Source of the DNA: Escherichia phage vB_EcoM_EP32a
Strand: one strand, 5' to 3'
DNA length: 64,000 bases
Sequence record: OR544954
The position numbers and the translations under genes were made by a program. Below the pieces are notes generated by a model. That model ran no database searches and was not told the DNA's origin. It was given only the letters and a program-made list of their open reading frames with translations. This document shows positions 14,041-62,409 of this stretch, one piece after another; the stretch's first letter is position 1, and each line of letters opens with the position of its first letter.

Positions 14041-14074
14041 TTGGATAATAAACCACCAATTGAAAGGTAATAAT

Positions 14075-40513: not shown

Positions 40514-40623
40514 ATTGAATTACATTATGGATACTATAAATGATATGATTTTTCGTTTTGGTCCAGAATTTTATTCGCAGTATAGTTTGGTGTTTATCAA
40601 TGCTTAGTTAATTAAGGGTAAAT

Positions 40624-40839: not shown

Positions 40840-40841
40840 TT

Positions 40842-41448: not shown

Positions 41449-41556
41449 CCAGGTGCCGCCTGGTCTTCTTTATCTCATTTCTAATATAATCCATTGGAAT
41501 CTTCACTTCACTATCTCCTTGTGCCACTCTCAAATCAAAAAATATTTTCATAAAAC

Positions 41557-41600
41557 AGTTTACATCCTCAATAGATGTGTTAAGATTAAACCATCTACTA
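41557..41600 (+). promoter_or_regulatory. T4-type early promoter with flanking inverted repeat
   Basis: GTTTACA ... TAAGAT; ATAGATG/CATCTACTAT. Confidence 0.45.
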
Positions 41601-41614
41601 TAGAGGAAAATAAA

Positions 41615-41797
41615 ATGACAATTGAAGATAAAGAAATTAAGGTCGACCAGTACTATTCTGTCAACGGTAGTGCAGTACAGATAACCAGAGTTTCAAGCCT
41701 GGATGTTTGGTACCGTTCGATCAAATATCCGGAAATTGGTGAAATGCTTTGTGACCGTGGTATCTTCTGTTCAATTGCGAAGGAAATTAAGCCATGA
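41615..41797 (+). CDS. hypothetical protein
   Basis: 60 aa after AGAGGAAAA. Confidence 0.5.
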   Translation: MTIEDKEIKVDQYYSVNGSAVQITRVSSLDVWYRSIKYPEIGEMLCDRGIFCSIAKEIKP

Positions 41798-42042
41798 TTA
41801 GTTTAGATTCAAAGAAAGTTGTTCTATCTCTTAATGTAAATAACGAACGTCCGATATTCATTACCATTTCCGATTTGAATGTTGAAATTGCTAATGGCGT
41901 CCGTACTTATCAAACGTCTAAAACACAATGGGACTATATCCCAATGTTGACTCTTACTCAGCGTTTAGAATCAATCGGTCTTAAAGACCTTTCAGTAAGT
42001 GAAGTGAATTTTATCAAACGTATTGTATCAATCAACCTCTGA
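41794..42042 (+). CDS. hypothetical protein
   Basis: 82 aa. Confidence 0.5.
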   Translation: MISLDSKKVVLSLNVNNERPIFITISDLNVEIANGVRTYQTSKTQWDYIPMLTLTQRLESIGLKDLSVSEVNFIKRIVSINL

Positions 42043-42049
42043 GGTACTT

Positions 42050-42343
42050 ATGGGTAAAACGTATCGTCGTAAAGATTTGAAAGTTCGCGATTACGACTAT
42101 TTTGGTAAGCGTAAAGCTCCTGATGGTGTTAGCCACAAAGACATGGTTGAAAACATTTTCCGCTCAGATAAATGGAAACGTATGAAAGGCGTTGATTCTG
42201 AAGTCAAGAATGAAATGAATCGACAACTCCGCAAAGAAGTTCGTAAGTTGAAAAAAGATGTTTACAGTAAAGAAGAGTATGATTATAATACTTCTCATAC
42301 TGAAGCCAAACGTAAAGCTAACGAATGTTATCGTTACAGTTGA
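42050..42343 (+). CDS. hypothetical basic protein
   Basis: MGKTYRRKDLKVRDYDYFGKRKAP... Confidence 0.5.
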   Translation: MGKTYRRKDLKVRDYDYFGKRKAPDGVSHKDMVENIFRSDKWKRMKGVDSEVKNEMNRQLRKEVRKLKKDVYSKEEYDYNTSHTEAKRKANECYRYS

Positions 42344-42350
42344 GGAAATT

Positions 42351-42485
42351 ATGAATATCAAACGAATGCTTTTTAAGCAGGGATTATATACTTTAAATGT
42401 TAATCCAAAGGGTGATACAACTAAATGGTCTGTAAATGACTGGATTAAGTTCATCGATGAAAATGGGGCGTGGAACACAAAATGA
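42351..42485 (+). CDS. small hypothetical protein (44 aa)
   Basis: ATG after GAGGAAA. Confidence 0.35.
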   Translation: MNIKRMLFKQGLYTLNVNPKGDTTKWSVNDWIKFIDENGAWNTK

Positions 42486-42685
42486 ATCCTGAAAATATTG
42501 TGTCATGGCAAAAGCTTCGTGAAGAACGTGCCGAATTCTTTGCCAATATGAAACTCAACGGTGTTGAGGATGAAGACTTTTTACGTTGGTTCTGGATTTA
42601 CAAATACAAAGAATGCCAGCACGCTGTACTACTGACTTGTGCAGTTATGTACGAAGGCTGGAAAGGCGCTAAAAAGTTCGGTTAA
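42482..42685 (+). CDS. hypothetical protein
   Basis: 67 aa. Confidence 0.5.
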   Translation: MNPENIVSWQKLREERAEFFANMKLNGVEDEDFLRWFWIYKYKECQHAVLLTCAVMYEGWKGAKKFG

Positions 42686-42687
42686 TA

Positions 42688-42727
42688 ATATACAACGATA
42701 GGAAGACATGTTATTATCTTCCTATCG
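42688..42727 (+). promoter_or_regulatory. T4-type early promoter with flanking inverted repeat
   Basis: TATACAA ... TATTAT in palindrome GATAGGAAGA/TCTTCCTATC. Confidence 0.45.
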
Positions 42728-42767
42728 TCTTAAAATGAGGAAAATATCATGGCCCAAGAATTAGATT

Positions 42768-42808
42768 TTATTACAAACTCTTGAGAGCAGAGTATAATGC
42801 TCTCTCAT
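42768..42808 (+). promoter_or_regulatory. T4-type early promoter with flanking inverted repeat (copy of 14003 cassette)
   Basis: TTACAAACTCTTGAGAGCAGAGTATAATGCTCTCTC. Confidence 0.5.
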
Positions 42809-42837
42809 TGGATAATAAAATAACCGAGGAAAATAAT

Positions 42838-43170
42838 ATGTCTACTAAAATCAAAAACGTAGTTAATTCTTTCGCTTTCGATAAAGTTGTTGCTCTTCTG
42901 GAATCCGGCAATATTGTTACTCCTCAAGTCCTTGACGCGTGGGAATTCCGTCTTTATGAAATCATGCAAAAACACGACCAGAAAATTGGACGTAATTCTA
43001 TTCGTGAAATTCTAGTACAATATATTCTTTCTGAATTTGACGTTGCTGCATTTGGTGTTGAATCTAAAGCTTATCAGAAACATGAAATCTCTGAAAAGAC
43101 TATCCGTCGTATGAAAAATCAACGTAAGAAAAAATTCGTTGACCTGAAAATTGTTAAGGCGGTAAAATGA
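42838..43170 (+). CDS. hypothetical protein
   Basis: 110 aa. Confidence 0.5.
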   Translation: MSTKIKNVVNSFAFDKVVALLESGNIVTPQVLDAWEFRLYEIMQKHDQKIGRNSIREILVQYILSEFDVAAFGVESKAYQKHEISEKTIRRMKNQRKKKFVDLKIVKAVK

Positions 43171-43394
43171 GCGTATTAACAGAATCTTTGATTAATGACC
43201 TGCGTCTAGCTGGTTACGAAGTTGGTACAAATAGCCTAGGTCTTTCTCAGATTGAAGGGCTTGGATTTATCCTAGAATATGAATTCAAACAATGGTGGCT
43301 ATATGCTACGGCTGACGATGCGTTGAATATCGATTTCGTTGACCAATTTGATTCGTTGGATGATGCTCTTGAAGCAGCAAAGGAACTAGAATGA
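43167..43394 (+). CDS. hypothetical acidic protein
   Basis: 75 aa. Confidence 0.5.
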   Translation: MSVLTESLINDLRLAGYEVGTNSLGLSQIEGLGFILEYEFKQWWLYATADDALNIDFVDQFDSLDDALEAAKELE

Positions 43395-43660
43395 AATTAA
43401 CTCGAATCAGTATAACTGAAGAAAAGCTGGGCGAATTTTATGTTGACGAATACATGAAAGTCACGTATTTTCCATTCGTTAAAGGTGTTGGTTTTTGGGA
43501 AACTCATGTATCTCAATTAAACGAAGGCGACTATAACGAAACTCATGAGAACTTTTTAGATTTTCTTTATAATGCCGGTCTTACTGAGCTTTATATCGAT
43601 ATCCATGAGTTCAAACGTTTAATGGAAAAAGTGTTTCAGGCTTATTGTTTGCTCCGATAG
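43391..43660 (+). CDS. hypothetical protein
   Basis: 89 aa. Confidence 0.5.
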   Translation: MKLTRISITEEKLGEFYVDEYMKVTYFPFVKGVGFWETHVSQLNEGDYNETHENFLDFLYNAGLTELYIDIHEFKRLMEKVFQAYCLLR

Positions 43661-43667
43661 TATCTCG

Positions 43668-43712
43668 TGCTTTAAGATAGGTCTCTAAATATTATGATAT
43701 AATAGACCTATG
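43668..43712 (+). promoter_or_regulatory. promoter with flanking inverted repeat upstream of gene 55
   Basis: -10 GATATAAT flanked by ATAGGTCT/AGACCTAT. Confidence 0.4.
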
Positions 43713-43732
43713 AATTGAGCTAAGAGGTACTT

Positions 43733-44290
43733 ATGACTGGACAAAAACCTAAAAATAACTATGTGAATAATAAAGAGCTTCTCGCCGCTATAATCGAGTG
43801 GAAAAAGGAGCTCTTAAATAATAAAGACCCAAACAAAATTATTCGTCAGAATGATACCATCGGTTTAGCAATTATGCTTATCGCCGAAGGCCTGTCCAAA
43901 CGTTTCAACTTTTCAGGATATACCCAGTCTTGGAAGCAGGAGATGATTGCAGATGGGATTGAAGCCTCTATTAAGGGACTTCATAATTTCGACGAAACTA
44001 AGTACAATAACCCACATGCATACATAACTCGAGCTTGTTTTAATGCTTTTGTCCAACGTATCAAAAAAGAACGTAAGGAAGTTGCAAAGAAATATAGTTA
44101 CTTCGTTCATAATGTCTACGACAGTCATGACGATGATATGGTAGCGTTGGTAGATGAAACGTTTATTCAAGACATCTACGATAAAATGACGCATTATGAA
44201 GAATCCGCTTATAAAGCTCCTGGGGCTGAAAAGAAGGAAGTTGTTAGCGATTCGCCTAGTTTGGATTTTTTATATGAGGATGACAATTGA
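43733..44290 (+). CDS. 55: late-transcription sigma factor gp55
   Basis: 185 aa; [27 protein letters not shown]...[35 protein letters not shown] matches recalled T4 gp55. Confidence 0.93.
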
Positions 44291-44489
44291 CATCTCTAAC
44301 TACTTAGAAGAACCTTTTGACGAAGCAATCCCTTATTTGGTAAAACTGTTGGGTCGTGAATTTAAAATTAATTTTGACATCGACCCTTTGAACCCACATG
44401 ACGTGTCATTTTCGATAAATGGGACTCCGGTTGAGTATGAGTTCTGTATTGAAGAGGATGGACGTTTTTATTTTAATTTAATGAGATAA
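44280..44489 (+). CDS. hypothetical protein
   Basis: [13 protein letters not shown]... Confidence 0.45.
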
Positions 44490-44490
44490 T

Positions 44491-44814
44491 ATGACTACCG
44501 AGATTATTGAAAATAAAGAAGCAGAAGATGCAGTAGCTAAAATGCTACAAGAAATCCAAAAGAAAAATGAAGCTGAAGCACGTAAAAAATCCGAAAAGAT
44601 TCTTAAAAAGAATCGTTTTGAACTAAACCGTCTTTATGCTCACGCTCAAGAAGCAGCAATTCAAAACAACTTCGAAGCTTACGAATATGCTATTAAGAAA
44701 TCTCGGGATATTCTACGCCAACCATATAATGACAAGTTAATTAAAATCCAGTGGGTTACTACTCGTCAGGCTATTGAGGACATCATTAATGGCGCTAGTT
44801 CAAACAAAGTTTAA
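44491..44814 (+). CDS. hypothetical protein
   Basis: 107 aa. Confidence 0.5.
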   Translation: MTTEIIENKEAEDAVAKMLQEIQKKNEAEARKKSEKILKKNRFELNRLYAHAQEAAIQNNFEAYEYAIKKSRDILRQPYNDKLIKIQWVTTRQAIEDIINGASSNKV

Positions 44815-45034
44815 ACGTCTGAAGCTGAACGCAGGGTTCACCCTTAAATTGGGAGGTCCTCTTTGTGTTAAAATCTCTGAAAAGGAATATCACGACTGTT
44901 CTATTACAGAAATTTGTCCGCCTATTGTAAAGGCAGACCCAAAACAACTCGTGTGGGTTGATTCATTTCAAGTTAAGAAATGGTGGAAACGATGAGAGAA
45001 ATCGATTTAGGTATTTTCTGAGAGGTGCTTATGC

Positions 45035-45208
45035 ATGACGAACATCCCGACTTCTGAAAATTTCGATAAAATCCATAAAGGCAAAGCAGAAAGAATGAGA
45101 CGTTTTAAAGAGTCTTATGATAAAGCTAAAGCCGAAGGAACTATTACATACAAGCCCATTCGATTTAAAAGTTCAAATGAGCCTCTGTACGGTGTACTAT
45201 GTGGATAG
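45035..45208 (+). CDS. small hypothetical protein (57 aa)
   Basis: Below ORF-track cutoff; followed by a terminator. Confidence 0.35.
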   Translation: MTNIPTSENFDKIHKGKAERMRRFKESYDKAKAEGTITYKPIRFKSSNEPLYGVLCG

Positions 45209-46555: not shown

Positions 46556-46781
46556 TTATGAAATCCATCGTCATGAATTTAGTATTGGTGACGGTTATAT
46601 TGGTATCGTTGAATGGACCGAGAATTACGAGGAATCAACTCCTCGTTTCTTTGGAACAATGTATGTTACCTGTGAGTACGCACCAGGTGTTGTTATGTAT
46701 GCAGAACTAGATGAATATTTTGCTGATAGAGATGACATGTTAAAATATGTAGAGGACTTCATTCGAAGAGAATACATATGA
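46542..46781 (+). CDS. hypothetical protein
   Basis: MTKTDYEIHRHEF... Confidence 0.5.
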   Translation: MTKTDYEIHRHEFSIGDGYIGIVEWTENYEESTPRFFGTMYVTCEYAPGVVMYAELDEYFADRDDMLKYVEDFIRREYI

Positions 46782-48377
46782 AATCATTTAAATTAAATCG
46801 TGTTCGTTATCAAAACATCATGTCGGTAGGTGGGAATCCTATTGATATCCAATTAGATAAAGTCCAAAAGACATTAATCACTGGTAAAAATGGCGGTGGT
46901 AAATCTACGATGTTAGAAGCCATTACTTTCGGACTTTTCGGTAAACCATTTCGTGATGTTAAGAAAGGACAAATCATTAACAGCACGAATAAGAAAGAGC
47001 TCTTAGTTGAGCTTTGGATGGAATTCGATGGTAAAAAATACTTCATTAAACGTGGCCAAAAGCCCAATATTTTCGAAATCTCCGTTGACGGTGTTCGTCT
47101 TGATGAATCTGCCAGCAGTCGCGACTTCCAAGAAGAATTTGAACGTAGCATCGGAATGTCATACGCGTCTTTTAAACAAATCGTTGTGCTTGGGACGGCA
47201 GGGTATACCCCTTTCATGGCTCTTAGCACCCCTGCTCGTAGAAAACTTGTCGAAGACCTTTTAGAAGTCGGCACACTCGCTGAAATGGATAAAATCAATA
47301 AGTCTCAAGTTCGAGAACTTAATTCCCAGGGACAAGTTCTCGATGCCAAGAAAGATGGTATTATCCAACAAATTAAGATTTATAACGAGAATATCGAACG
47401 TCAAAAGAAATTATCTGGTGATAATGTAGCGCGTCTACAGAATATGTATGACGACCTAGCCAAAGAAGCTCGTTCATTAAAAGCAGAAATCGAAGAAGCT
47501 AATGAGCGACTACTTAATATCGTTCTTGACGAAGACCCTACTGAGGCATTCAACAAGATAGGACAAGAAGCATTCTTGATTAAATCTAAAATTGACTCAT
47601 ATAACAAAGTTATTAAGATGTATCATGATGGCGGTACATGTCCTACTTGTGCATCACAGTTGCACCAGGGTGATCCTATTGTCTCTAAGATTACCGATAA
47701 GCTTCACGAATGTAATCACTCATTCGAGCAACTTACATGTCACAGAGATAATCTGAGTGTCCTAGTGGACGAATATAGAGCTAATGTTAAGACTAAACAG
47801 GACCTTGCATCTGATATTCGCACCAAGAAACAAGCAATGATTGCCACTATTGATAAAGCTAAGAAAGTTAAAGCTGCAATAGAGCAAGCCTCAGCAGAAT
47901 TTATCGACCATGCCGATGAGATAGCTTTGCTTCAAAAAGAACTTGATAAAATCATTAAAACAAAATCAGATATCGTTCTTGAAAAATACCATCGTGGTAT
48001 TATCACAGATATGTTAAAAGATTCTGGTATTAAAGGTGCTATCATTAAAAAATATGTGCCTCTGTTCAACAAGCAGATTAACCATTATCTTAAAATCATG
48101 GAAGCTGATTACGTGTTTTCTATTGATGAAGAATTCAATGAATCTATAAAATCACGTGGTCGTGAAGATTTTAGTTATGCTTCATTTAGTCAAGGTGAAA
48201 AAGCGCGTATCGATATCGCATTGTTGTTTACATGGCGAGATATTGCTGAAAAGGTCTCTGGCGTTAGAATCAACAAACGTGTTCATTATTTGTCATAGAG
48301 ACCATGACCCACAAGCTTATGGACAACATCTTCAAATGAGCAAAGTTGGACGATTTACTGTAATGACTGTTTCATAA
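46778..48377 (+). pseudogene. 46: recombination endonuclease subunit gp46 (Rad50/SbcC-like), apparently disrupted
   Basis: Frame A has Walker A GKNGGGKST and signature SFSQGEKARIDIAL but stops at 48298; H-loop-like NVFIICHRDHD continues in the +1 frame to 48377; no Walker B between them. Confidence 0.55.
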
Positions 48378-51833: not shown

Positions 51834-54545
51834 ATGAAAGAATTTTACTTAACGGTTGAACAGATTGGTGATTCAATTTTTGAACGTTACATCGATTCTA
51901 ATGGCCGTGAACGTACTCGTGAAGTAGAATATAAACCATCGCTGTTTGCTCATTGTCCAGAAAGTCAGGCTACGAAATATTTCGATATCTACGGTAAGCC
52001 GTGTACTCGTAAGTTGTTCGCTAATATGCGTGATGCCTCCCAATGGATTAAACGCATGGAAGATATCGGACTTGAAGCACTTGGCATGGACGATTTCAAA
52101 TTGGCGTATTTGTCTGACACTTATAACTATGAAATCAAATACGACCATACAAAAATTCGTGTGGCTAACTTCGACATCGAAGTAACATCTCCGGACGGGT
52201 TCCCTGAGCCGTCACAAGCAAAACATCCTATTGATGCTATCACCCATTATGACTCAATTGACGACAGGTTCTACGTATTTGATCTATTGAATTCTCCATA
52301 TGGTAATGTGGAAGAATGGTCTATCGAAATTGCAGCTAAGCTTCAAGAACAAGGTGGTGATGAAGTTCCATCCGAAATTATCGACAAAATCGTTTATATG
52401 CCGTTTGATAATGAAAAAGAATTATTGATGGAATATCTCAACTTCTGGCAACAGAAAACTCCTGTCATTTTGACTGGATGGAACGTTGAGTCATTTGATA
52501 TTCCATATGTGTATAACCGAATCAAGAATATTTTTGGCGAATCTACTGCGAAACGTTTATCACCACATCGTAAAACTCGCGTTAAAGTTATCGAAAACAT
52601 GTATGGTTCTCGTGAAATCATTACATTGTTCGGTATCTCTGTTCTTGATTACATTGACCTTTACAAAAAATTCTCTTTTACTAATCAACCGTCGTATTCT
52701 CTGGATTACATTTCAGAATTTGAATTGAACGTTGGTAAACTGAAATATGACGGCCCTATTTCTAAGCTTCGTGAAAGCAATCACCAACGATATATTTCTT
52801 ATAACATTATCGACGTGTATCGTGTATTGCAAATTGATGCTAAGCGTCAGTTCATCAACTTGAGTTTGGACATGGGTTATTATGCTAAGATACAGATTCA
52901 ATCTGTGTTTAGCCCAATTAAAACATGGGATGCTATTATTTTTAATAGCCTTAAAGAGCAGAACAAGGTGATTCCACAAGGTCGTTCTCACCCGGTTCAA
53001 CCTTATCCTGGCGCTTTTGTTAAGGAACCTATTCCAAATCGATACAAATATGTAATGAGTTTCGACCTTACATCTCTGTATCCAAGTATTATTCGCCAAG
53101 TGAATATTAGCCCAGAAACAATAGCAGGAACGTTTAAAGTAGCTCCATTGCATGATTATATTAACGCTGTTGCTGAACGTCCTTCTGATGTGTACAGTTG
53201 CTCTCCTAACGGCATGATGTATTATAAAGACCGTGATGGTGTAGTTCCAACTGAAATCACTAAAGTCTTTAATCAACGTAAAGAACATAAAGGTTATATG
53301 CTTGCGGCTCAACGTAATGGTGAAATAATTAAAGAGGCGTTGCATAATCCTAATCTTTCTGTTGACGAACCATTAGATGTTGATTATCGTTTCGACTTTA
53401 GCGATGAGATTAAAGAAAAGATTAAAAAGTTGTCTGCTAAATCTCTTAATGAAATGTTGTTTAGAGCTCAACGTACTGAAGTTGCAGGTATGACTGCCCA
53501 AATTAACCGTAAATTGCTTATCAACTCACTTTATGGTGCACTTGGCAACGTTTGGTTCCGTTATTACGATTTGCGTAATGCTACTGCAATCACAACATTT
53601 GGTCAAATGGCTTTACAGTGGATTGAACGTAAAGTTAATGAATATCTGAATGAAGTTTGTGGCACAGAAGGTGAAGCTTTCGTTCTTTATGGTGATACAG
53701 ACTCTATTTACGTATCTGCTGATAAAATTATCGATAAGGTTGGTGAATCTAAATTCCGTGATACCAACCATTGGGTAGACTTCTTAGATAAGTTTGCACG
53801 TGAACGTATGGAACCAGCTATTGATAGAGGTTTCCGTGAAATGTGTGAATACATGAACAATAAACAACACTTAATGTTCATGGACCGAGAAGCTATCGCT
53901 GGTCCTCCGCTTGGTTCTAAAGGTATTGGTGGATTCTGGACTGGCAAGAAACGTTATGCATTAAACGTGTGGGATATGGAAGGCACTCGTTACGCTGAGC
54001 CTAAACTCAAAATCATGGGTCTCGAGACTCAGAAATCTTCGACTCCTAAAGCAGTACAGAAAGCTCTTAAAGAATGTATTCGTCGTATGCTTCAAGAAGG
54101 TGAAGAATCATTACAAGAATATTTTAAAGAGTTTGAAAAAGAATTCCGTCAATTGAATTATATTAGCATCGCGTCGGTATCTTCTGCGAATAACATTGCT
54201 AAATATGACGTAGGTGGATTCCCTGGTCCCAAATGCCCGTTCCATATTCGTGGAATTCTGACGTATAACCGGGCTATCAAAGGTAATATTGATGCTCCAC
54301 AAGTTGTAGAAGGTGAAAAAGTATATGTTCTGCCTTTACGTGATGGAAACCCATTCGGTGATAAATGTATCGCATGGCCTTCTGGTACTGAAATCACAGA
54401 TTTAATTAAAGACGACGTACTTCATTGGATGGACTACACTGTTCTCCTTGAGAAGACATTTATTAAACCACTTGAAGGATTCACATCAGCAGCGAAACTC
54501 GATTACGAGAAGAAAGCATCTCTGTTCGATATGTTCGATTTTTGA
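51834..54545 (+). CDS. 43: DNA polymerase gp43 (family B)
   Basis: 903 aa; exo motifs FDIEV and YNIIDV, pol motifs DLTSLYPS and YGDTDS; matches recalled RB69 gp43 sequence. Confidence 0.97.
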   Translation: MKEFYLTVEQIGDSIFERYIDSNGRERTREVEYKPSLFAHCPESQATKYFDIYGKPCTRKLFANMRDASQWIKRMEDIGLEALGMDDFKLAYLSDTYNYEIKYDHTKIRVANFDIEVTSPDGFPEPSQAKHPIDAITHYDSIDDRFYVFDLLNSPYGNVEEWSIEIAAKLQEQGGDEVPSEIIDKIVYMPFDNEKELLMEYLNFWQQKTPVILTGWNVESFDIPYVYNRIKNIFGESTAKRLSPHRKTRVKVIENMYGSREIITLFGISVLDYIDLYKKFSFTNQPSYSLDYISEFELNVGKLKYDGPISKLRESNHQRYISYNIIDVYRVLQIDAKRQFINLSLDMGYYAKIQIQSVFSPIKTWDAIIFNSLKEQNKVIPQGRSHPVQPYPGAFVKEPIPNRYKYVMSFDLTSLYPSIIRQVNISPETIAGTFKVAPLHDYINAVAERPSDVYSCSPNGMMYYKDRDGVVPTEITKVFNQRKEHKGYMLAAQRNGEIIKEALHNPNLSVDEPLDVDYRFDFSDEIKEKIKKLSAKSLNEMLFRAQRTEVAGMTAQINRKLLINSLYGALGNVWFRYYDLRNATAITTFGQMALQWIERKVNEYLNEVCGTEGEAFVLYGDTDSIYVSADKIIDKVGESKFRDTNHWVDFLDKFARERMEPAIDRGFREMCEYMNNKQHLMFMDREAIAGPPLGSKGIGGFWTGKKRYALNVWDMEGTRYAEPKLKIMGLETQKSSTPKAVQKALKECIRRMLQEGEESLQEYFKEFEKEFRQLNYISIASVSSANNIAKYDVGGFPGPKCPFHIRGILTYNRAIKGNIDAPQVVEGEKVYVLPLRDGNPFGDKCIAWPSGTEITDLIKDDVLHWMDYTVLLEKTFIKPLEGFTSAAKLDYEKKASLFDMFDF

Positions 54546-54585: not shown

Positions 54586-55221
54586 ATGAAAACTACTCCT
54601 ATTACTATCGCTATTGACGCAATCATAAAACAAGCTTCTTCTTTGGCCGCTATGGCCAAAGTAATTAGTCAAAACCCTGCTCGTTATAATGCTATTCTAG
54701 AAACTCTTCGACGCCCTGGACTTAGTAATTATGAAAGCCGGGTAATTATTACAGGTGTTGGTAAGAATGCTAATATCGCAACTAAAGCTTCCGAGACTTT
54801 TGCTTCACTAGGTATTCCTAGCATGTATTTGAACACCGGGCATTATTCTCATGGTGATGCAGGATTTATTGCGCCTAATGATGTGTTGATTCATATTAGT
54901 CGTTCTGGTAAAACTGAAGAAATGATAGGTGTTGCTAAACATCTTCGTATGATTCGTCCTCAGGTTAAACAGATTCTGTTACATTGTAACCCAGACATTC
55001 CACAAGAATACGAAGCTCTTTTTGATTATACGTTCTGTACCGGTATCGCGGTAGAAGTTGACGAGAACTCTTTGGCTCCGACTATGTCCACTACATTGTT
55101 GTTAGCGCTTATCGATACGTTTGCTATCAACCTTTCGTCTGAACGCGGATTTACCTCTAATGACTTCCTTAAGTTCCACCCTGGTGGTGCACTAGGTGCC
55201 ATGTTACGAGGCGAACAATGA
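54586..55221 (+). CDS. SIS-domain sugar-phosphate isomerase (KdsD/GmhA-like)
   Basis: ITGVGKNANIA ... HGDAGF ... SRSGKTEE motifs. Confidence 0.75.
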   Translation: MKTTPITIAIDAIIKQASSLAAMAKVISQNPARYNAILETLRRPGLSNYESRVIITGVGKNANIATKASETFASLGIPSMYLNTGHYSHGDAGFIAPNDVLIHISRSGKTEEMIGVAKHLRMIRPQVKQILLHCNPDIPQEYEALFDYTFCTGIAVEVDENSLAPTMSTTLLLALIDTFAINLSSERGFTSNDFLKFHPGGALGAMLRGEQ

Positions 55222-55361
55222 AAGCAATAACAATAGGACTTTTACTATTGATGCTTGTCATGACTATCTACTGGAGCTTAATGGCTCCAGTAATGATTCC
55301 AACACTTGTAATTGGATGGATTATGATTGGACTACAAGCAAAGTATGAATGCTTTATCTAG
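55218..55361 (+). CDS. small membrane protein (47 aa)
   Basis: Hydrophobic ORF MKAITIGLLLLMLVMTIYW...; below the ORF-track cutoff. Confidence 0.4.
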   Translation: MKAITIGLLLLMLVMTIYWSLMAPVMIPTLVIGWIMIGLQAKYECFI

Positions 55362-55402
55362 AATAGTGTACAATACTCCTACTTACCAATGAGGACTTCA
55401 AC

Positions 55403-57088
55403 ATGAAAAAAGCTGTTATTCTTGGTGCTGGACTGGCAACTCGTTTGTATCCAATAACGCATCATATTCCTAAGGTGCTTGTTAACTATAAACAAGACAC
55501 TATTCTGAGCAATTTGTATACAATTTATTCTGACCTTGGCGCAGATGAAATTATTGTAGTAGTTCATTCAAAATTTGCTGAAACCGTTCGAGCTTATTGT
55601 GAGCAAGAAGGGTTCAATGTGACTATTCGTACAGTTGATGAAGCGTATGGTTCTGCTTATGCTCTTGCTAAATTATACAAAGATTTAGATGGCCATAACG
55701 TAATTGTTAACTGGTGTGATATTATTCCTGATTTTGGTTCATGGTCTTGGAATGTTAACGCAATCTATGTTAAGGGTGATGAATGTCGATATAATTTCGA
55801 CGGTGAAAATATCACTAACGTAGGTTCAACGGGTGGTAATGTTGTAGGAATTTACCAGTTCAAAGACTGGGAATTCTATATGGGTTCTACTGATGAGGAA
55901 ATTCATGAATACTGCAAAGGACGTGATTTCGTAGAATTCCTTTACGGGAGTGCATTCAATAAATCAGAGCTTATGAATCTAATTGATTTAGGTGATATGC
56001 CTAAACTTGAAAAAGCTCATGAAGTTCGTGAACTTAATCGTAGTTTTAATGCAGTTGAAATTGGTGAAGAAACTGTAACTAAATTCGCATTAACCGAACA
56101 GGGTCGAGCTCTTCAGAAAGATGAGATTTCATGGTATCTTAAAGTGAAATCAGATTCAGTTCCTCAGTTAGTTTCTGTTAATGAAAATAACTTTGAAATG
56201 GAACGCATTAAAGGTAAGCCGGCATTTGAATATATTAAATCCAAATCAAGTCTTGCTCGTCCACAAATTGTTGATGCAATTTTAGATGCACTGAAATTCA
56301 GCACAGACACTTATTTTGTAAGTCCTGAAACTGTTCGTCGTGATTTCACTAAAGAATTCTATACGAAAGTTATTGATCGTTGTGAAAGCATTCAGCCATT
56401 GATTGATTCATTTGGTAAAATCACACATGTGAACTACACTAAGATTGGACGTCTGAAGCCAATGCTGAAACAAGCTTTAGAACACCTTATTCGTTATCAT
56501 AACCGTTCTCAGGGACAGTACTCTGTTATTCACGGTGACCCGAACTTCAGTAATACTATGATTACTGATAATGGCGAAGTCAAGTTTATCGACCCTCGTG
56601 GATATTTTGGTGAAACCAAGATTTACGGGCCAAAATTGTATGACGAAGCTAAAGTGCTTTATGCTGTTTCAGGTTATGATGAATTCAATGCTAATCCAAC
56701 CTGGGGACAGTTTACTATTGATGAAACAACTTGTAATGTGACTATTAACATCAATCCATTAGTTTACAAATATGGAAAGATGAGTTCGTTTAACGAGTAT
56801 CATCATTTGGCAGTGGCAATTATCTGGATTGCATTAGGTGGTTATTTCAAGAATAATCCACTTAAAGCGGTAGCCGCATATTATAAAGGTATGGAACTTC
56901 TGACTAAGCAATTACGTAACATGGGCCGTGTACTTCAGGACGGCTCTATTAGTTATGACGTAGCAGAACCTGTAACGGCTACTCTGATTACAAAAAATCC
57001 TGGTAAATGGGTACTAACTGATAAAGAAACTGGTGTTTCCTATCGTCCAATCGGTGGCGATATCACTCATCAATGGGAACGAATCTAA
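55403..57088 (+). CDS. bifunctional sugar-1-phosphate nucleotidyltransferase / kinase
   Basis: N-terminal ILGAGLATRLYPIT (RmlA-like); C-terminal VIHGDPNFSN...FIDPRG (APH/choline-kinase-like). Confidence 0.75.
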   Translation: MKKAVILGAGLATRLYPITHHIPKVLVNYKQDTILSNLYTIYSDLGADEIIVVVHSKFAETVRAYCEQEGFNVTIRTVDEAYGSAYALAKLYKDLDGHNVIVNWCDIIPDFGSWSWNVNAIYVKGDECRYNFDGENITNVGSTGGNVVGIYQFKDWEFYMGSTDEEIHEYCKGRDFVEFLYGSAFNKSELMNLIDLGDMPKLEKAHEVRELNRSFNAVEIGEETVTKFALTEQGRALQKDEISWYLKVKSDSVPQLVSVNENNFEMERIKGKPAFEYIKSKSSLARPQIVDAILDALKFSTDTYFVSPETVRRDFTKEFYTKVIDRCESIQPLIDSFGKITHVNYTKIGRLKPMLKQALEHLIRYHNRSQGQYSVIHGDPNFSNTMITDNGEVKFIDPRGYFGETKIYGPKLYDEAKVLYAVSGYDEFNANPTWGQFTIDETTCNVTININPLVYKYGKMSSFNEYHHLAVAIIWIALGGYFKNNPLKAVAAYYKGMELLTKQLRNMGRVLQDGSISYDVAEPVTATLITKNPGKWVLTDKETGVSYRPIGGDITHQWERI

Positions 57089-57474
57089 TGCACCGTGTAG
57101 AAAACATGCTTAATCTTTGTTTTGATGTCGACGATTGTATAACAGAGTGGAATAACAATCGTGATTACGTGAACTTCAAGCCAGACGTCGAAATGGTGAC
57201 TGCCATTAATGCCCTGTATGATGCAGGGCATACCATAACGCTTTACACTGCTCGTGGTATGAAGTCAGTAGGTCCTGGACGTATAGCAATTGATATTCTC
57301 CCAAGTCTGATTCAGAACTTGGCAAACATTGGCTTGAAGTACCATAATTTGCTAACACATAAACCAGTATATGATTGGATTATCGACGACAAAGCTATGC
57401 GTCCTGACGAATTCAAAGCTCTTATGAATAAAGGCGAATTCGAAACATTTAAATCGTATAAACCGAATCTATAA
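57088..57474 (+). CDS. HAD-superfamily phosphatase
   Basis: DxDxT motif FDVDDCIT; start 57088 (TAATG overlap) or 57073. Confidence 0.6.
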   Translation: MHRVENMLNLCFDVDDCITEWNNNRDYVNFKPDVEMVTAINALYDAGHTITLYTARGMKSVGPGRIAIDILPSLIQNLANIGLKYHNLLTHKPVYDWIIDDKAMRPDEFKALMNKGEFETFKSYKPNL

Positions 57475-57519
57475 TAATTTAAGTAAGACCTGCAAAAAAA
57501 AACCATCGCGTCAATTAAC

Positions 57520-58695
57520 GTGAGATGCAAAAAAATGAATACTTTTAAAATCGGAACGAATTTTGATTTAGCTCTTCTTGATAAAATCGTAGAGCTCAAT
57601 AAAACTTATCCTAATAGCTTGATAAACGAAGTATACGGCTCTACAAGAGAAATGGCTTTTGTAGCAGCCAGACCTGATTTTAGGCTTCCTGACGTTGACA
57701 AAAAGATGTTAGAAGATTACGTTAAACGTTGTAACGAATTAGGTATTTGCTTTAACTATACACTCAACACGATAAATCCTGGTTCAAAAAGAGAACTAGT
57801 TGAGTGGAAGAAGAAAGCTATTCAGGATTATGTTCAGTATCTTTGGTCAATAGGCGTATGGCGTATTACTATCGCTAACCCTGTTGTTATGGAAATTGTT
57901 CGTGAAGTCAATAAAGACATTGAGATTGAAGTTTCAACAATTCTACATGTCGATGCTGTAACTCAAATAAAATACTTACATGACCAATACAATATCAAAA
58001 AGGTCTGCTGTGGAATTCATAAGAACCGTTCAGTTTCTTTCCTGAAGCGTGCAGCAGAGTTTTGCAATAAGAACAATATAATATTTGAAGTTCTTGTAAA
58101 TGAGTTCTGTTCTAATGCTGGTAAAGGGTATACAACACATTGTAGCTATCGTGACTCTTGCTATATTTTCCATAGTACTGATGTTACAGCTGATGATGCT
58201 AAATCCTTAAACGGGTATCCTATGCAGCACTGTATTAAAGCTCGTGATACAGACCCATTTAACTGGTTGAGAACTCGTTTTGTTCGTCCTCAAGATTTGA
58301 AACTTTATAATGATATTGGTATCACTCAATTCAAAGTTTCAGGACGTACAGGTAGCACAGACTACATTTTGAAAGTTCTTGAAGCATACGCTTCTGAAAA
58401 GTTTGAAGGTAATTTGTTAGAACTGTGGAAGCCTTTAGAGACTATTTTCACTCTTGAAAACGAAACTGAGTTTTCACATACAGTAAATATTGAAACCTCT
58501 TTGTTAGATGGCTTTTTAGAAAAAAGGTGGTTCAGACATCCAGATTTCGATTGTGCTAATGAAATCTGCGGGACGACGTGTACATATTGTGAAAGATATT
58601 ATAAACGTCAATTATCTAAAAACGGGTTAGCAGAAAACTCTATATCTATTATTGATATAACTAACTCTGATGACGCTTTGAGGTACCCGGAATGA
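57520..58695 (+). CDS. Cys-rich 391-aa protein, candidate modification or transferase enzyme
   Basis: Cys clusters EFCSNAGKGYTTHCSY and DCANEICGTTCTYCERYY; family not assigned. Confidence 0.6.
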   Translation: MRCKKMNTFKIGTNFDLALLDKIVELNKTYPNSLINEVYGSTREMAFVAARPDFRLPDVDKKMLEDYVKRCNELGICFNYTLNTINPGSKRELVEWKKKAIQDYVQYLWSIGVWRITIANPVVMEIVREVNKDIEIEVSTILHVDAVTQIKYLHDQYNIKKVCCGIHKNRSVSFLKRAAEFCNKNNIIFEVLVNEFCSNAGKGYTTHCSYRDSCYIFHSTDVTADDAKSLNGYPMQHCIKARDTDPFNWLRTRFVRPQDLKLYNDIGITQFKVSGRTGSTDYILKVLEAYASEKFEGNLLELWKPLETIFTLENETEFSHTVNIETSLLDGFLEKRWFRHPDFDCANEICGTTCTYCERYYKRQLSKNGLAENSISIIDITNSDDALRYPE

Positions 58696-58931
58696 TTTCT
58701 AGAAAAACTTTTAATCACCGACTTAATGAAGAGATTTTGACTACGAAACTGAACACTAACGAACAAATTCTTAAAAAGGCCCTGATGGGCCTGTTTGAAA
58801 TTAAAGCGGCTAAAGTGATTAAAGAACCTGTTCAATTGGAATACTACGCTGATGCATTTCTTCATAGTGTTCTTGGAAGTATCGATGCTGAAGCTTTACG
58901 TTATATCAACATTGTCAAGAAATTCAAATAA
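58692..58931 (+). CDS. hypothetical protein
   Basis: 79 aa. Confidence 0.5.
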   Translation: MISRKTFNHRLNEEILTTKLNTNEQILKKALMGLFEIKAAKVIKEPVQLEYYADAFLHSVLGSIDAEALRYINIVKKFK

Positions 58932-58972
58932 GCTTTACGAATTGAGTATATAATAATTGTATTGAGGTAAAC

Positions 58973-59689
58973 ATGGGAAAACATAACACAATGAAATATA
59001 TCAAAGCCGCAGATTTTCAAACCGCATTTAAAGCAGTCAATCGTGAAATTTTAGAAAACCCGGAATTCGTAACTGATTCTCGTATTGGACGTTGTAATGA
59101 AATTGGGTCTATGACAGTAGTTGTTGACACTCCATCATCATTCAAAATGACAGACCCACGTATTAACCGCATCTCTTATGAATATGCCGAAGACTTCTGG
59201 AAGTTTATGATTTCTGGTGGTACCAACGCAGAAGAAGCGTTTAAGGCATATCCTAATGTCGCTAAATTTATTTCTAAACCAAAATCAGATGTTTTGCCGG
59301 CGAACTTCAACACTTTCTATGGTCCTCGCATTGCGGCCCAGCTACCGGCTCTTCTAAAAGAACTTAAAGAGAAGCCTAACTCTCGAAGAGTTGTGTTCCA
59401 AATTCTAGAAAGTTCTGATCAGGCTTTGCTTGATTCGGACGAAACGCTTGAATATCCATGTACTGACTCAGTGACTTATTATATTCGTGATGGTAAGCTT
59501 TATACCCACTGTCATATGCGTTCCCAGAACTGTGCTGTTGTTATGCAGTTGGATTTTTATCTCCAAGGAAAATTACTTCATTATATCGCTAACGAATGTG
59601 GTGTAGAAGTTGGTGATTATACTCATACCATGGTAAGTGCCCATGTGTTTGAACGTGATTTTGATTATGTTAAAGGATTCCTTGACTAA
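58973..59689 (+). CDS. 42: thymidylate-synthase-fold pyrimidine hydroxymethylase (gp42-like, divergent)
   Basis: EYPCTDSVTYYIRD...HMRSQN resembles the T4 gp42 active-site region FMCTNTVQYLIRD...NMRSND. Confidence 0.6.
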   Translation: MGKHNTMKYIKAADFQTAFKAVNREILENPEFVTDSRIGRCNEIGSMTVVVDTPSSFKMTDPRINRISYEYAEDFWKFMISGGTNAEEAFKAYPNVAKFISKPKSDVLPANFNTFYGPRIAAQLPALLKELKEKPNSRRVVFQILESSDQALLDSDETLEYPCTDSVTYYIRDGKLYTHCHMRSQNCAVVMQLDFYLQGKLLHYIANECGVEVGDYTHTMVSAHVFERDFDYVKGFLD

Positions 59690-60588
59690 TGGCTATTTTC
59701 CGCGTACCTATCTTGAGTATGCGGTCTTATGAAACTGGACAGTATGCTATCCTTAAGGATGGCAACTTCCAACTTCATTTGCACCGTGCTAATCCAGGTG
59801 ATGTGATTACATATCCACGTAATGCATCTGATATTAAAGAATGCGAACGTCTTTTTCCGGAATTTAAGTTTGTTCCATTATGGTATAAAGATAACGCGTA
59901 TAACACTCGTAAATATTTCTGGTCTGAAAATGAATTTGTGGTTGATTCATTAATTGCTTATTATGATTGTGATTTTCTAATCACAGATATCACCGGATAT
60001 GATGGCGCTTTTGACGTAGAATTCAATTTCAATATCACTGCAGACCCTAATAAACCACGTTTTTATATTGATGAATTCTTAAAAACCGACATGTTGTCTG
60101 TTAATCGTTCACTTCAAACTACTGTGTTGAATGAACGTCAAAAAGAAGTGCTGGTTAACGCAGGTGCAGATGGTAATAAGATTATCGTAACACAGAAAGT
60201 TATACGTCCTTCCGTCATGCAGCGTCTTGTAGGTGATTTGGCTCCTATTCATCTAGATGGTATTTTTCATCCATTTCGAATTAGTGACCCATGCTATCGT
60301 TTTGAACAAGTGGTTGAATGCGCAATTCAATTAGGTCAACCGCTTTATATAACTGATCCAAATAATAGTTTCGACAGAAATAAGTATCCTGAAGAAGCGC
60401 TGATTCGAATTTTTAATCCAACTAAAACTGAGTACTATCAAATTCTTAAAGGACGTCCGAAGATTCAATATTTCGAAAATCCTGAAGAAGTATTCCATCC
60501 AGGTCTTGGTGAGTTCATCTACTTTAATGCTTTAATTTCTTCACCGTATAATATACCTAAATACGAAGATGTCGTAATCGAGGAATAA
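59689..60588 (+). CDS. hypothetical 299-aa protein (at the T4 beta-gt position)
   Basis: No family recognised by eye. Confidence 0.55.
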   Translation: MAIFRVPILSMRSYETGQYAILKDGNFQLHLHRANPGDVITYPRNASDIKECERLFPEFKFVPLWYKDNAYNTRKYFWSENEFVVDSLIAYYDCDFLITDITGYDGAFDVEFNFNITADPNKPRFYIDEFLKTDMLSVNRSLQTTVLNERQKEVLVNAGADGNKIIVTQKVIRPSVMQRLVGDLAPIHLDGIFHPFRISDPCYRFEQVVECAIQLGQPLYITDPNNSFDRNKYPEEALIRIFNPTKTEYYQILKGRPKIQYFENPEEVFHPGLGEFIYFNALISSPYNIPKYEDVVIEE

Positions 60589-60589
60589 A

Positions 60590-61138
60590 ATGGCTAAAAT
60601 TATTTTAGTAGACGGGCCTGATAATGCTGGTAAAACAACTTTCATTAATGACATAATGGAAATTAGTGAAAGATATGTAAAGATTGATTTCCCTAAACGA
60701 ACAGTTGATGGGCGTTTCGATGTTAAGTCTCGAAATGAAGTTGGCTGTTTCGAAACGATGTTGAATTATTTAGACCCTACTAAGATTTATCTATTAGACC
60801 GTGGATATATTAGTAACTGGGTTTATGGACGTATTCGACAAGATGCGGACTCGGTTCTTGACGTTTATGAACAGGATTATGTTCGTCTTTGCCAAAACCA
60901 TGATGTGTTCACAATTATTTTAACCCGTAACGAAATGACTGAAAGTTTTGAAGACGACCTTATTACTTTGTCTTCATTCGGTTTTAATACAGTCATTTCA
61001 CATTTTGAAGAGTTTGCAATTCATAACAAAATCCAAACGTATCAATTACTTAATCATGATGGTTCTAACAAAGTTATAGGATTTAATGCAAGTGAACGTA
61101 ATAATTTGATTACAGAAATCATTAAATGGGCTCGTTAA
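60590..61138 (+). CDS. P-loop nucleoside/nucleotide kinase-like protein
   Basis: Walker A VDGPDNAGKTT; 182 aa. Confidence 0.6.
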   Translation: MAKIILVDGPDNAGKTTFINDIMEISERYVKIDFPKRTVDGRFDVKSRNEVGCFETMLNYLDPTKIYLLDRGYISNWVYGRIRQDADSVLDVYEQDYVRLCQNHDVFTIILTRNEMTESFEDDLITLSSFGFNTVISHFEEFAIHNKIQTYQLLNHDGSNKVIGFNASERNNLITEIIKWAR

Positions 61139-61236: not shown

Positions 61237-62409
61237 ATGTCTGATTTAAAATCTCGTCTGATTAAAGCTTCTACTTCTAAAATGACTGCAGACTTGACTA
61301 AGTCTAAGCTGTTTAATAATCGTGATGAAGTCCCTACTCGTATTCCGATGTTGAATATTGCATTAGGTGGTGCTCTGAATGCAGGATTGCAATCAGGCTT
61401 GACTATTTTTGCTGCTCCTTCTAAACACTTTAAAACGTTGTTTGGACTAACTATGGTTGCAGCATATATGAAGAAATATAAAGATGCAATTTGTTTGTTC
61501 TATGATTCAGAATTTGGTGCTTCAGAATCTTATTTTCGTTCAATGGGTGTTGATTTAGACCGTGTAGTTCATACACCAATTCAGTCAGTAGAACAACTTA
61601 AAGTTGATATGACTAATCAGCTTGACGCGATTGAACGCGGTGATAAAGTTATTATCTTTATCGATTCAATCGGTAATACTGCATCTAAGAAAGAAACTGA
61701 AGATGCATTGAACGAGAAAGTTGTAGGTGATATGTCTCGTGCTAAGGCACTTAAATCTCTTTTCCGTATTGTGACCCCGTATCTGACTATTAAAGATATT
61801 CCGTGTGTTGCAATTAACCATACCGCAATGGAAATTGGCGGATTGTATCCTAAAGAGATTATGGGCGGTGGTACAGGTATTCTTTATTCTGCTAACACTG
61901 TATTCTTTATCTCTAAACGTCAGGTTAAAGAAGGTACAGAATTGACCGGTTATGACTTCACGTTGAAAGCAGAAAAATCTCGTACAGTTAAAGAGAAATC
62001 TACTTTCCCGATCACGGTTAATTTCGATGGTGGTATCGACCCATTCAGTGGCTTGCTAGAAATGGCAACTGAAATCGGTTTTGTGGTTAAGCCTAAAGCC
62101 GGGTGGTATGCTCGTGAATTCCTTGACGAAGAAACAGGTGAAATGATTCGTGAAGAGAAATCGTGGCGTGCTAAAGCTACTGATTGTGTAGAATTCTGGG
62201 GACCGTTGTTTAAACACAAGCCTTTCCGTGACGCAATTGAAACTAAATATAAACTAGGTGCTATCTCTTCTATTAAAGAAGTTGATGACGCTGTTAACGA
62301 CCTTATTAATTGCAAAGCAACAACTAAAGTTCCGGTTAAAACTTCTGATGCTCCGTCTGCAGCAGATATAGAAAACGACCTTGACGAAATGGAAGATTTC
62401 GATGAATAA
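61237..62409 (+). CDS. uvsX: recombinase UvsX (RecA-like)
   Basis: 390 aa; P-loop-containing, T4 order before 40 and 41. Confidence 0.9.
   Translation: MSDLKSRLIKASTSKMTADLTKSKLFNNRDEVPTRIPMLNIALGGALNAGLQSGLTIFAAPSKHFKTLFGLTMVAAYMKKYKDAICLFYDSEFGASESYFRSMGVDLDRVVHTPIQSVEQLKVDMTNQLDAIERGDKVIIFIDSIGNTASKKETEDALNEKVVGDMSRAKALKSLFRIVTPYLTIKDIPCVAINHTAMEIGGLYPKEIMGGGTGILYSANTVFFISKRQVKEGTELTGYDFTLKAEKSRTVKEKSTFPITVNFDGGIDPFSGLLEMATEIGFVVKPKAGWYAREFLDEETGEMIREEKSWRAKATDCVEFWGPLFKHKPFRDAIETKYKLGAISSIKEVDDAVNDLINCKATTKVPVKTSDAPSAADIENDLDEMEDFDE

Follow-up and report, generated by a model that had tools for sequence, protein, structure and literature searches.

The DNA analysed here, referred to as the window, is a 64,000-nucleotide stretch of Escherichia phage vB_EcoM_EP32a (record OR544954). 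Judged from its sequence, the region at 54586-61138 is very probably an arabinosyl-5-hydroxycytosine (ara-5hoC) DNA hypermodification cluster of a Mosigvirus close to RB69, orthologous to RB69 genes 45-55. It comprises nine open reading frames (ORFs) on the + strand, which follow one another closely or share a few bases, and its bounds match exactly the start codon of the SIS-domain isomerase gene and the stop codon of a P-loop kinase gene. The flanks are the genes of DNA polymerase gp43 (51834-54545) and UvsX (61237-62409). Seven larger proteins and two small ORFs (47 and 79 aa) are encoded, and profile searches agree with the descriptions that the original prediction, made from the letters of the window, had given of the proteins lying between gene 43 and uvsX. 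The same prediction proposed a self-contained pathway for a non-glucose sugar on a modified cytosine, which is borne out by the orthology to RB69 and by published chemistry (Lee et al. 2026, PMC13326640). The cassette is not the new system it had been taken for, having already been described in papers of 2018, 2025 and 2026. One of its members, a U32-family protein, is a candidate for a second hydroxylase in the same pathway.

The DNA of the region is 97.5% identical to RB69, so that the guess of RB69 or a relative was right, and 98.4% identical to Mosigvirus genomes such as AV111 and APCEc01. All nine products map one-to-one to RB69 p045-p055 with protein identities of 91-100%, and the flanking proteins are 99.8% (gp43) and 100% (UvsX) identical to those of RB69. 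The same nine genes, in the same order from gp43 to uvsX and with the same synthase signature, form RB69 45-55, the Afh cluster of HY126 and the clusters of Bas46, Bas47 and other Mosigvirus phages. Most of the region is covered by 151 phage records, and orthologs at 65-87% identity were found in many strabovirus genera. Because of this identity to RB69 in DNA and protein and of the orthologs across strabovirus genera, the cassette genes are regarded as real rather than chance ORFs. A promoter and terminator scan of the region gave a number of sites not above that of shuffled sequence.

The base would be hydroxylated by a 238-aa thymidylate-synthase homolog (58973-59689; RB69 gp48), which from its residues is assigned as a flavin- and O2-dependent synthase of 5-hydroxy-deoxycytidine monophosphate (5-hydroxy-dCMP) and not as a hydroxymethylase. 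It matches Pfam Thymidylat_synt with 56.9 bits, is 99.2% identical to RB69 p048 and 97.5% identical to the solved structures of the HY126-type enzyme (PDB 9IQC, 9IR2 and 9IQU). In an alignment with E. coli ThyA, T4 gp42, RB69 gp48 and DLP3 gp80, and in ThyA numbering, it presents A80, E143, C146, N169, V173 and D177, the changes being W80A, L143E, D169N, G173V and N177D. The L143E/D169N/N177D signature is common to the window protein, RB69 gp48 and DLP3 gp80, and from it the product is predicted to be ether-linked arabinosyl-5-hydroxycytosine. RB69 gp48 and DLP3 gp80 make 5-hydroxy-dCMP in vivo, with oxygen from 18O2 and with bound flavin mononucleotide, and D169N marks this activity (PMC13326640). 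Mass spectrometry (MS) and nuclear magnetic resonance (NMR) identified arabinose joined by an ether link to 5-hydroxycytosine (5hoC) in phage DNA (PMC13326640), and virion DNA with mono- or di-arabinosyl-5-hydroxydeoxycytidine has been reported for RB69, NP, Bas46 and Bas47 (PMC13326640; PMC13390438).

The original prediction had placed here a gp42-like hydroxymethylase which would make 5-hydroxymethylcytosine (hmC), with the arabinose carried on the hydroxymethyl group (ara-hmC), and had cited arabinosyl-hmC as reported for the RB69 lineage. This assignment dates from 2018, when arabinose on RB69 DNA was labelled ara-hmC from high-performance anion-exchange chromatography and matrix-assisted laser desorption/ionization data (Thomas et al., PMC6024577), and it agrees with an enzyme of the thymidylate synthase family which shares L143E and N177D with T4 gp42. 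However, T4 gp42 retains W80 and D169 and is 24.8% identical to the window protein, against 97.5% for the HY126-type enzyme. Position 169, diagnostic of 5-hydroxy-dCMP synthases, is Asn here and Asp in T4 gp42, and Ala takes the place of Trp80, a residue within 6 Å of C5 in E. coli ThyA. The NMR and MS data, the 18O2 labelling and the in vivo assays all give an ether link from 5hoC (PMC13326640), and a 2026 paper describes the hmC assignment as erroneous (PMC13390438). Refuted for RB69 by published chemistry, ara-hmC is highly improbable for this window as well, and the predicted base is 5-hydroxycytosine instead.

The sugar donor is attributed to three genes. The first encodes a predicted D-arabinose-5-phosphate (Ara5P) isomerase of 211 aa with a single SIS domain (54586-55221; ortholog of RB69 gp55), converting ribulose-5-phosphate. 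It matches Pfam SIS (39.8 bits) and NCBIfam models of the KpsF/GutQ/KdsD type (KpsF/GutQ E 5e-32, KdsD E 2e-30), is 98.1% identical to RB69 p055, and this role was put forward for RB69 gp55 in PMC13326640. The second encodes a bifunctional sugar-1-phosphate nucleotidyltransferase/kinase-like protein of 561 aa (55403-57088; ortholog of RB69 gp52:53 and analogous to AfhE of HY126). Pfam NTP_transferase was identified at residues 3-99, with weak Fructosamin_kin and EcKL matches at 308-409 and a match to LicC in the PDB (1jyk, E 2e-5), and the protein is 99.7-100% identical to RB69 p052 and p053. By analogy with AfhE, it is proposed to convert Ara5P to arabinose-1,5-bisphosphate and, later, arabinose-1-phosphate and UTP to UDP-arabinofuranose. 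The third encodes a HAD-family phosphatase (57073-57474, true start maybe the ATG at 57088; RB69 gp51), which by analogy with AfhF is proposed to take the bisphosphate to arabinose-1-phosphate; it matches NCBIfam TIGR01689 (capsule biosynthesis phosphatase, E 4.6e-13) and phrog_1238 and is 98.4% identical to RB69 p051.

This chain agrees with PMC13326640, and the prediction of a route from ribulose-5-phosphate to a nucleotide-activated arabinose through isomerase, kinase, phosphatase and nucleotidyltransferase was in line with it. In HY126, as PMC13326640 relates from He et al. 2026, AfhE is both Ara5P kinase and UDP-arabinose pyrophosphorylase, AfhF is the phosphatase, and the two are sufficient to go from Ara5P to UDP-arabinose. 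RB69 ORF055c and ORF53_52c had been named as UDP-arabinose candidates in 2018 (PMC6024577), and UDP-arabinose biosynthesis is also the annotation given in Bas47, a close relative. In the window the 561-aa and 299-aa genes are uninterrupted, whereas the RB69 GenBank record splits each in two; the splits (52/53 and 46/47) have been attributed to sequencing errors (PMC6024577; PMC13326640).

A parallel had also been drawn with the GmhA-HldE-GmhB route to ADP-heptose. It stands for the reaction logic, with the same four-step order of isomerase, anomeric kinase, distal phosphatase and nucleotidyltransferase and a fusion of kinase and transferase, and fails for family membership, since no NCBIfam match to GmhA, HldE or GmhB models was identified in the cassette proteins. 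The isomerase is of KdsD/KpsF type and not GmhA, the kinase domain is APH/choline-kinase-like whereas that of HldE has a ribokinase fold, and the predicted substrate and carrier are a pentose and UDP. The nucleotidyltransferase domain does match the heptose-1-phosphate guanosyltransferase HddC weakly (E 7e-5), far below other nucleotidyltransferase families.

The closest cellular families of two of these proteins, KdsD/KpsF for the isomerase and a capsule biosynthesis phosphatase for the HAD protein, would also suit a mimicry of the host envelope, where arabinose-5-phosphate is fed into the synthesis of 3-deoxy-D-manno-octulosonate (KDO), lipopolysaccharide or capsule. The original prediction had itself raised such mimicry as a reading that would overturn it. 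The published DNA chemistry contradicts it, since the virion DNA of RB69, NP, Bas46 and Bas47 carries arabinose. In addition, the DAHP_synth_1 proteins encoded near distant U32 homologs score as synthases of 3-deoxy-D-arabino-heptulosonate 7-phosphate (DAHP) and not of KDO 8-phosphate (KDO8P). The probability left to envelope mimicry is close to nil.

The transfer of the sugar is attributed to a 299-aa protein encoded next to the synthase gene (59689-60588; RB69 gp46:47). By sequence it has no Pfam, NCBIfam or PDB match, and it was identified by predicted structure alone, which makes it a compact glycosyltransferase of the GT-B fold. It is proposed as the first, base-proximal DNA arabinosyltransferase. 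The 299-aa and 391-aa proteins had both been named as transferase candidates: the predicted structure supports the former, whereas the latter, with its U32 TIM barrel and ten conserved cysteines, is not a plausible transferase. That no glycosyltransferase would be recognised at the beta-gt position is likewise contradicted by the predicted GT-B fold. The predicted lack of the T4 enzymes themselves did hold, as tblastn of the whole window with T4 alpha-gt and beta-gt gave noise only (E >= 0.015), and with T4 imm and RB69 ORF003c no match. The alpha-gt slot is empty: a-gt.2 to a-gt.5 are kept beside gene 47 (40043-45205) and the gap between a-gt.2 and gene 47 is 76 nt, so the alpha-gt gene is precisely absent and its small downstream neighbours are kept. 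The last gene of the cassette encodes a thymidylate-kinase-like (Tmk-like) P-loop nucleotide kinase (60590-61138; RB69 gp45), with a match to phrog_761 (thymidylate kinase, E 1.7e-45), a weak match to TIGR00041 and 98.4% identity to RB69 p045; it would phosphorylate the modified deoxynucleoside monophosphate. Structure prediction was also the basis on which gp55, gp52:53, gp51, gp46:47 and gp45 of RB69 were assigned in PMC13326640.

Taken in order, the synthase would hydroxylate dCMP at C5 with flavin and O2, phage kinases would take 5-hydroxy-dCMP to the triphosphate, and the polymerase would insert it in place of dCTP. Meanwhile the isomerase would divert ribulose-5-phosphate to arabinose-5-phosphate, the kinase domain of the 561-aa protein would form arabinose-1,5-bisphosphate, the HAD phosphatase would strip the 5-phosphate and the nucleotidyltransferase domain would yield UDP-arabinofuranose. 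The 299-aa GT-B protein would then place the first arabinose on the 5-hydroxyl, and a homolog of RB69 gp3, encoded outside the window, would add the second.

The literature establishes that the synthase makes 5-hydroxy-dCMP with oxygen taken from O2, and it also establishes the DNA chemistry and the reactions of AfhE and AfhF in HY126; the sequence holds nothing that contradicts the ara-5hoC assignment. Some points weigh on the other side. The assignments for this phage's own region come by homology, and three of the nine ORFs (U32, 79-aa and 47-aa) stand outside the assigned roles. A published attempt to arabosylate 5hoC DNA in vitro with the first transferase, made with the enzymes of DLP3, was unsuccessful (PMC13326640), so the first sugar could go onto DNA or onto the nucleotide. 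Finally, by synteny the locus of the second RB69 arabinosyltransferase (gp3, between rIIA and gene 39) lies about 20 kb past the window end, therefore mono- and di-arabosylation are not told apart from the window.

Two known systems are close to this cluster. At the same position T4 presents 43, imm.1, imm, 42, beta-gt, segA and uvsX, in agreement with the comparison first made with imm, gene 42 and beta-gt. T4 and the cassette share the slot, a thymidylate-synthase homolog which modifies dCMP before replication (predicted, for the cassette), and a GT-B transferase just downstream, at the beta-gt position, which decorates the new hydroxyl. They differ in the chemistry, predicted as flavin/O2 hydroxylation in the cassette and being folate hydroxymethylation in T4; in the donor, predicted as phage-made UDP-arabinofuranose in the former and being host UDP-glucose in the latter; and in the absence from the 64-kb window of any sequence homolog of alpha-gt, beta-gt or imm. 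The second system is that of Acinetobacter phage DLP3 (genes 76-83), which shares the isomerase, nucleotidyltransferase/kinase, HAD protein, 5-hydroxy-dCMP synthase, first glycosyltransferase and Tmk-like kinase. DLP3 lacks the U32 gene, the 79-aa ORF and a chorismate mutase, and has two further glycosyltransferase genes in the cluster and tri-arabinosyl-5hoC in its DNA (PMC13326640).

The U32-family protein is cysteine-rich, 391 aa long and encoded between the HAD and synthase genes (57520-58695, likely start ATG at 57535; RB69 gp50). The proposal made here, to which we give about an even chance, is that it hydroxylates C5 of the cytosine precursor (dCMP, or possibly cytosine in DNA) without O2 and in dependence on prephenate. 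The protein has a Peptidase_U32 match of 42.2 bits and a TIM-barrel fold. All of 121 homologs keep five cysteines (C163, C197, C208, C214 and C238) and a C-terminal four-Cys cluster, and 98% of them keep C182. The protein may bind an Fe-S cluster; the CX6C of RlhA has its counterpart in C208 and C214, although the four cluster ligands are not singled out from sequence. With phmmer there was no PDB match and none against UbiU, UbiV, RlhA and TrhP of E. coli, whereas the family profile reaches RlhA with a probability of 88%, TrhP with 22% and UbiU with 6%; discrimination between these paralogs is weak and no RlhA orthology is claimed. The only NCBIfam families touched by the phage family are UbiU and TrhP.

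The characterised relatives are hydroxylation systems. RlhA leads to 5-hydroxycytidine at position 2501 of 23S rRNA, TrhP to 5-hydroxyuridine at position 34 of tRNA and UbiU/UbiV to the anaerobic hydroxylation of ubiquinone; all of them depend on prephenate and Fe-S and have no need of O2, and prephenate is the demonstrated oxygen donor for UbiUV (PMC5727448, PMC6599085, PMC10990095). The phage protein shares with them the Peptidase_U32 domain and TIM-barrel fold and, in its relatives, a genomic tie to prephenate supply, and its E-F...C-x5/6-C-Y-I-x-H signature aligns with RlhA. It differs as a distinct and shorter subfamily (about 360-390 aa), without the DUF3656 or U32_C domains of the RNA enzymes, with an extra invariant C-terminal C-x4-C-x3-C-x2-C cluster and with a deoxynucleotide or DNA as predicted substrate.

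By tblastn the U32 protein was identified in 221 phage records, all at 80% identity or more, and the host genera seen belong to Enterobacterales or are Shewanella. The position of its gene inside the cluster is fixed across at least 10 strabovirus genera. Among Acinetobacter phages, 65 records have the synthase homolog (66-70% identity in those listed, DLP3 included) and none has U32. In DLP3 the HAD and synthase genes are immediate neighbours and lack the intervening U32 gene, and since DLP3 arabosylates its DNA, U32 is dispensable for arabosylation as such. The cassette of the E. coli Dhakavirus phage dhaeg also lacks U32, by which a strict rule that a facultative-anaerobe host implies U32 was rejected.

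Winklervirus, Kanagawavirus, Tegunavirus, Mosugukvirus and other genera have a type II chorismate mutase gene just downstream of U32, in some cases immediately next to it and in others separated from it by a small gp49-like ORF. The products score 38.5 and 44.6 bits with Pfam CM_2 (cut-off 27). The gene is present in 54 phage records, all from genera that carry the cluster, and lies beside U32 wherever coordinates were compared. In Mosigviruses, this window included, a CM_2 search found no chorismate mutase gene, and an unrelated 79-aa ORF is there instead. The E. coli host makes prephenate itself via PheA and TyrA.

Distant U32 homologs (36-58% identity) are encoded on large metagenomic viral contigs, in modules of replication and nucleotide metabolism. 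The survey covered 29 IMG/VR loci with neighbours inspected within 10 kb. A glycosyltransferase of the 299-aa family was identified in about 15 of the 29, a nucleotidyltransferase/kinase homolog in 16 and an isomerase in nine. A thymidylate-synthase homolog was present in two, with an ordinary ThyA signature in L036 and a 5-hydroxy-dCMP synthase signature in L061. Three loci (L045, L047 and L049) share the order glycosyltransferase, isomerase, nucleotidyltransferase/kinase, HAD, DAHP synthase-chorismate mutase fusion, HAD-like and U32; in L008 the order is glycosyltransferase, isomerase, nucleotidyltransferase/kinase, U32 and DAHP synthase, and in L050 U32 is followed by a chorismate mutase. 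Three others (L039, L041 and L060) contain glycosyltransferase and U32 genes without isomerase or nucleotidyltransferase genes. Among otherwise unlabelled neighbours the commonest Pfam family was Thymidylate_kin, as in the Tmk-like kinase of the window. The DAHP_synth_1 neighbours were also considered as KDO8P synthases consuming arabinose-5-phosphate and rejected as such, with E-values of 1e-47 to 1e-70 for DAHP synthase models against 1e-12 to 1e-17 for KDO8P. Of the four that were scanned, three carry a fused chorismate mutase. Among named cellular proteins, those closest to the fusion come from Prevotella, Prevotellaceae, Sanguibacteroides and Flavobacterium, which points to Bacteroidota hosts, mostly anaerobes.

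Under the hydroxylase proposal, U32 would supply the same 5-hydroxyl in the anoxic gut, where the flavin/O2-dependent synthase cannot work, and the cluster would encode two hydroxylases for a single DNA modification, one aerobic and the other anaerobic, in the manner of TrhO/TrhP and UbiIHF/UbiUV. In phages of obligate anaerobes U32 would be the sole hydroxylase, backed by phage DAHP synthase and chorismate mutase. Three states are seen: synthase only in phages of the strict aerobe Acinetobacter, both enzymes in many phages of facultative anaerobes, and U32 only in what are probably phages of anaerobes. This pattern, together with the repeated tie to prephenate-producing enzymes, fits a non-orthologous displacement at C5 hydroxylation. 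The likeness to TrhO/TrhP and to UbiI-H-F/UbiU-V is that of an O2-dependent enzyme and a U32 protein for possibly one hydroxylation (PMC6599085); the difference is that the phage pair is virus-encoded and would act, with a presumed redundancy, on a DNA precursor. The window also carries nrdG, for the anaerobic ribonucleotide reductase activase, and nrdH (both within 40043-45205), and RB69 has nrdD beside nrdG; nrdG and nrdD are consistent with replication under anoxia.

Several points weaken the hydroxylase proposal. RlhA, TrhP and UbiUV have not been reconstituted in vitro (PMC5727448, PMC6599085, PMC10990095), E. coli Dhakavirus phages do without U32, and thymidylate-synthase homologs may lie beyond the 10 kb inspected in the distant loci. 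The substrate could be dCMP, another nucleotide or DNA. Within the accessible full-text literature, a scope that leaves out He et al. 2026 and Mahler et al. 2025, there was no paper tying U32, chorismate mutase or prephenate to phage 5hoC. That literature states that RNA pyrimidine hydroxylation pathways use no homolog of 5-hydroxy-dCMP synthase and makes no remark on the homology of gp50 to the U32 enzymes of these pathways.

A place of U32 in the sugar branch, as reductase, epimerase or other tailoring enzyme of arabinose or its nucleotide carrier, is suggested by existing annotations: RB69 gp50 is listed in Table 1 of PMC13326640 as a 'sugar or heterocycle reductase', without discussion, the gp50-type protein is called an epimerase in PMC13390438, and in Bas47 it is annotated as an enzyme involved in UDP-arabinose biosynthesis. 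The gene order agrees with it, since U32 directly follows the HAD phosphatase gene and in metagenomic operons often comes after isomerase and nucleotidyltransferase/kinase genes. However, AfhE and AfhF are sufficient for the step from Ara5P to UDP-arabinose, as far as PMC13326640 relates it. Furthermore, DLP3 makes tri-arabinosylated 5hoC without a U32 gene, the recurrent partners, chorismate mutase and DAHP synthase, play no part in activating pentoses, and three of the distant loci (L039, L041 and L060) pair glycosyltransferase and U32 in the absence of isomerase and nucleotidyltransferase genes. We know of no U32 protein that acts on sugars. A sugar-branch role is considered unlikely, well behind prephenate-dependent hydroxylation.

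The Pfam family name, the PHROG label 'peptidase' and GenBank annotations would instead make U32 a collagenase-like peptidase, a passenger gene apart from the DNA modification. Against this stand the fixed place inside the cluster in at least 10 strabovirus genera, the co-occurrence with glycosyltransferase, isomerase and nucleotidyltransferase genes in unrelated viral contigs, the ten cysteines which are invariant or nearly so, and the tie of characterised U32 members to hydroxylation and not to proteolysis (PMC5727448, PMC6599085, PMC10990095). A peptidase is very unlikely.

Some of the distant loci depart from the arabinose pattern. In L009 (8001-14179) the genes around U32 encode a glycosyltransferase of the 299-aa family, a TAGT-like glycosyltransferase, a dUTPase/dCTP-deaminase and a UDP-galactopyranose mutase, and there is no thymidylate-synthase homolog near U32. 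The set resembles a glycosylated 5-hydroxypyrimidine pathway in a hexose (galactofuranose) version, akin to that of Rhizobium phage RL38J1 but based on U32. In L004 (7447-9086, on a 466-kb contig) and L007 (7504-9083) U32 comes directly after a dCMP deaminase gene, in a module with thymidylate kinase, uracil-DNA glycosylase and DNA polymerase III alpha, where uracil instead of cytosine could be the base that is hydroxylated. A radical SAM/SPASM gene is also near U32 in L004. L005 contains a second, very divergent U32 paralog (13227-14360) by a radical SAM/SPASM protein (12160-13185); the two genes are a few kb from the main U32 and are surrounded by NT5C, deoxynucleoside kinase and nucleoside deoxyribosyltransferase genes.

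The remaining members of the cassette are the two small ORFs. The first (55218-55361; RB69 ORF054c) encodes 47 strongly hydrophobic residues, matches phrog_3610 (E 7e-25) and occupies the same position, between the isomerase and nucleotidyltransferase/kinase genes, in every strabovirus cluster inspected, including those of Virsaitis27, KLB31, TG1 and PM2; the KLB31 annotation is a transmembrane domain. The second (58692-58931; RB69 ORF049c, phrog_8601) encodes 79 aa and is the product most diverged from RB69 (91% identity). It overlaps the end of the U32 gene by four bases and is probably translationally coupled to it. Its family has the motif Y-[YF]-x-D-A-F-x-H-S...R-x-I-N (window 58692-58931; L018:4049-4246; L019:3983-4156) and was found solely beside U32 genes, in Mosigvirus, Tegunavirus and Mosugukvirus; the protein may be a U32 partner. 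The possibility that it is a chorismate mutase was rejected: there is no CM_2 match, hhalign against phage chorismate mutases gives a probability of 0.2%, and Yersinia phage TG1 and Pectobacterium phage PM2 have gp49-like and separate chorismate mutase genes side by side.

Outside the cassette, gene 46 (46778-48377), encoding a Rad50/SbcC-like recombination nuclease, presents a clean 89-bp deletion relative to RB69, between 48273 and 48274, where a stretch of 440 bp in relatives is 351 bp in the window. The ORF is frameshifted and stops at 48298 (506 aa instead of 562 aa), and the final 38 codons are still readable in a different frame. An error of assembly, a natural mutation of gene 46 or an edit could account for it.

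The main value of the cassette is the correct annotation of the region and the correction of the hmC reading. In keeping with known biology, RB69-like phages make their own UDP-arabinose and a 5-hydroxylated cytosine, which protect their DNA against the nucleases of restriction and CRISPR systems. A single route to 5-hydroxy-dCMP has been demonstrated and it requires O2, yet the hosts are gut enterobacteria and the phages carry anaerobic ribonucleotide reductase genes. If the hydroxylase proposal is true, a DNA precursor would for the first time be the substrate of a U32 hydroxylase, and the presence of chorismate mutase and DAHP synthase genes in phages would be explained. The phage protein would also offer a compact, soluble, single-polypeptide system in which to reconstitute U32 hydroxylation in vitro, and glycosylated 5-hydroxypyrimidine DNA would be predicted in uncultured Bacteroidota phages.

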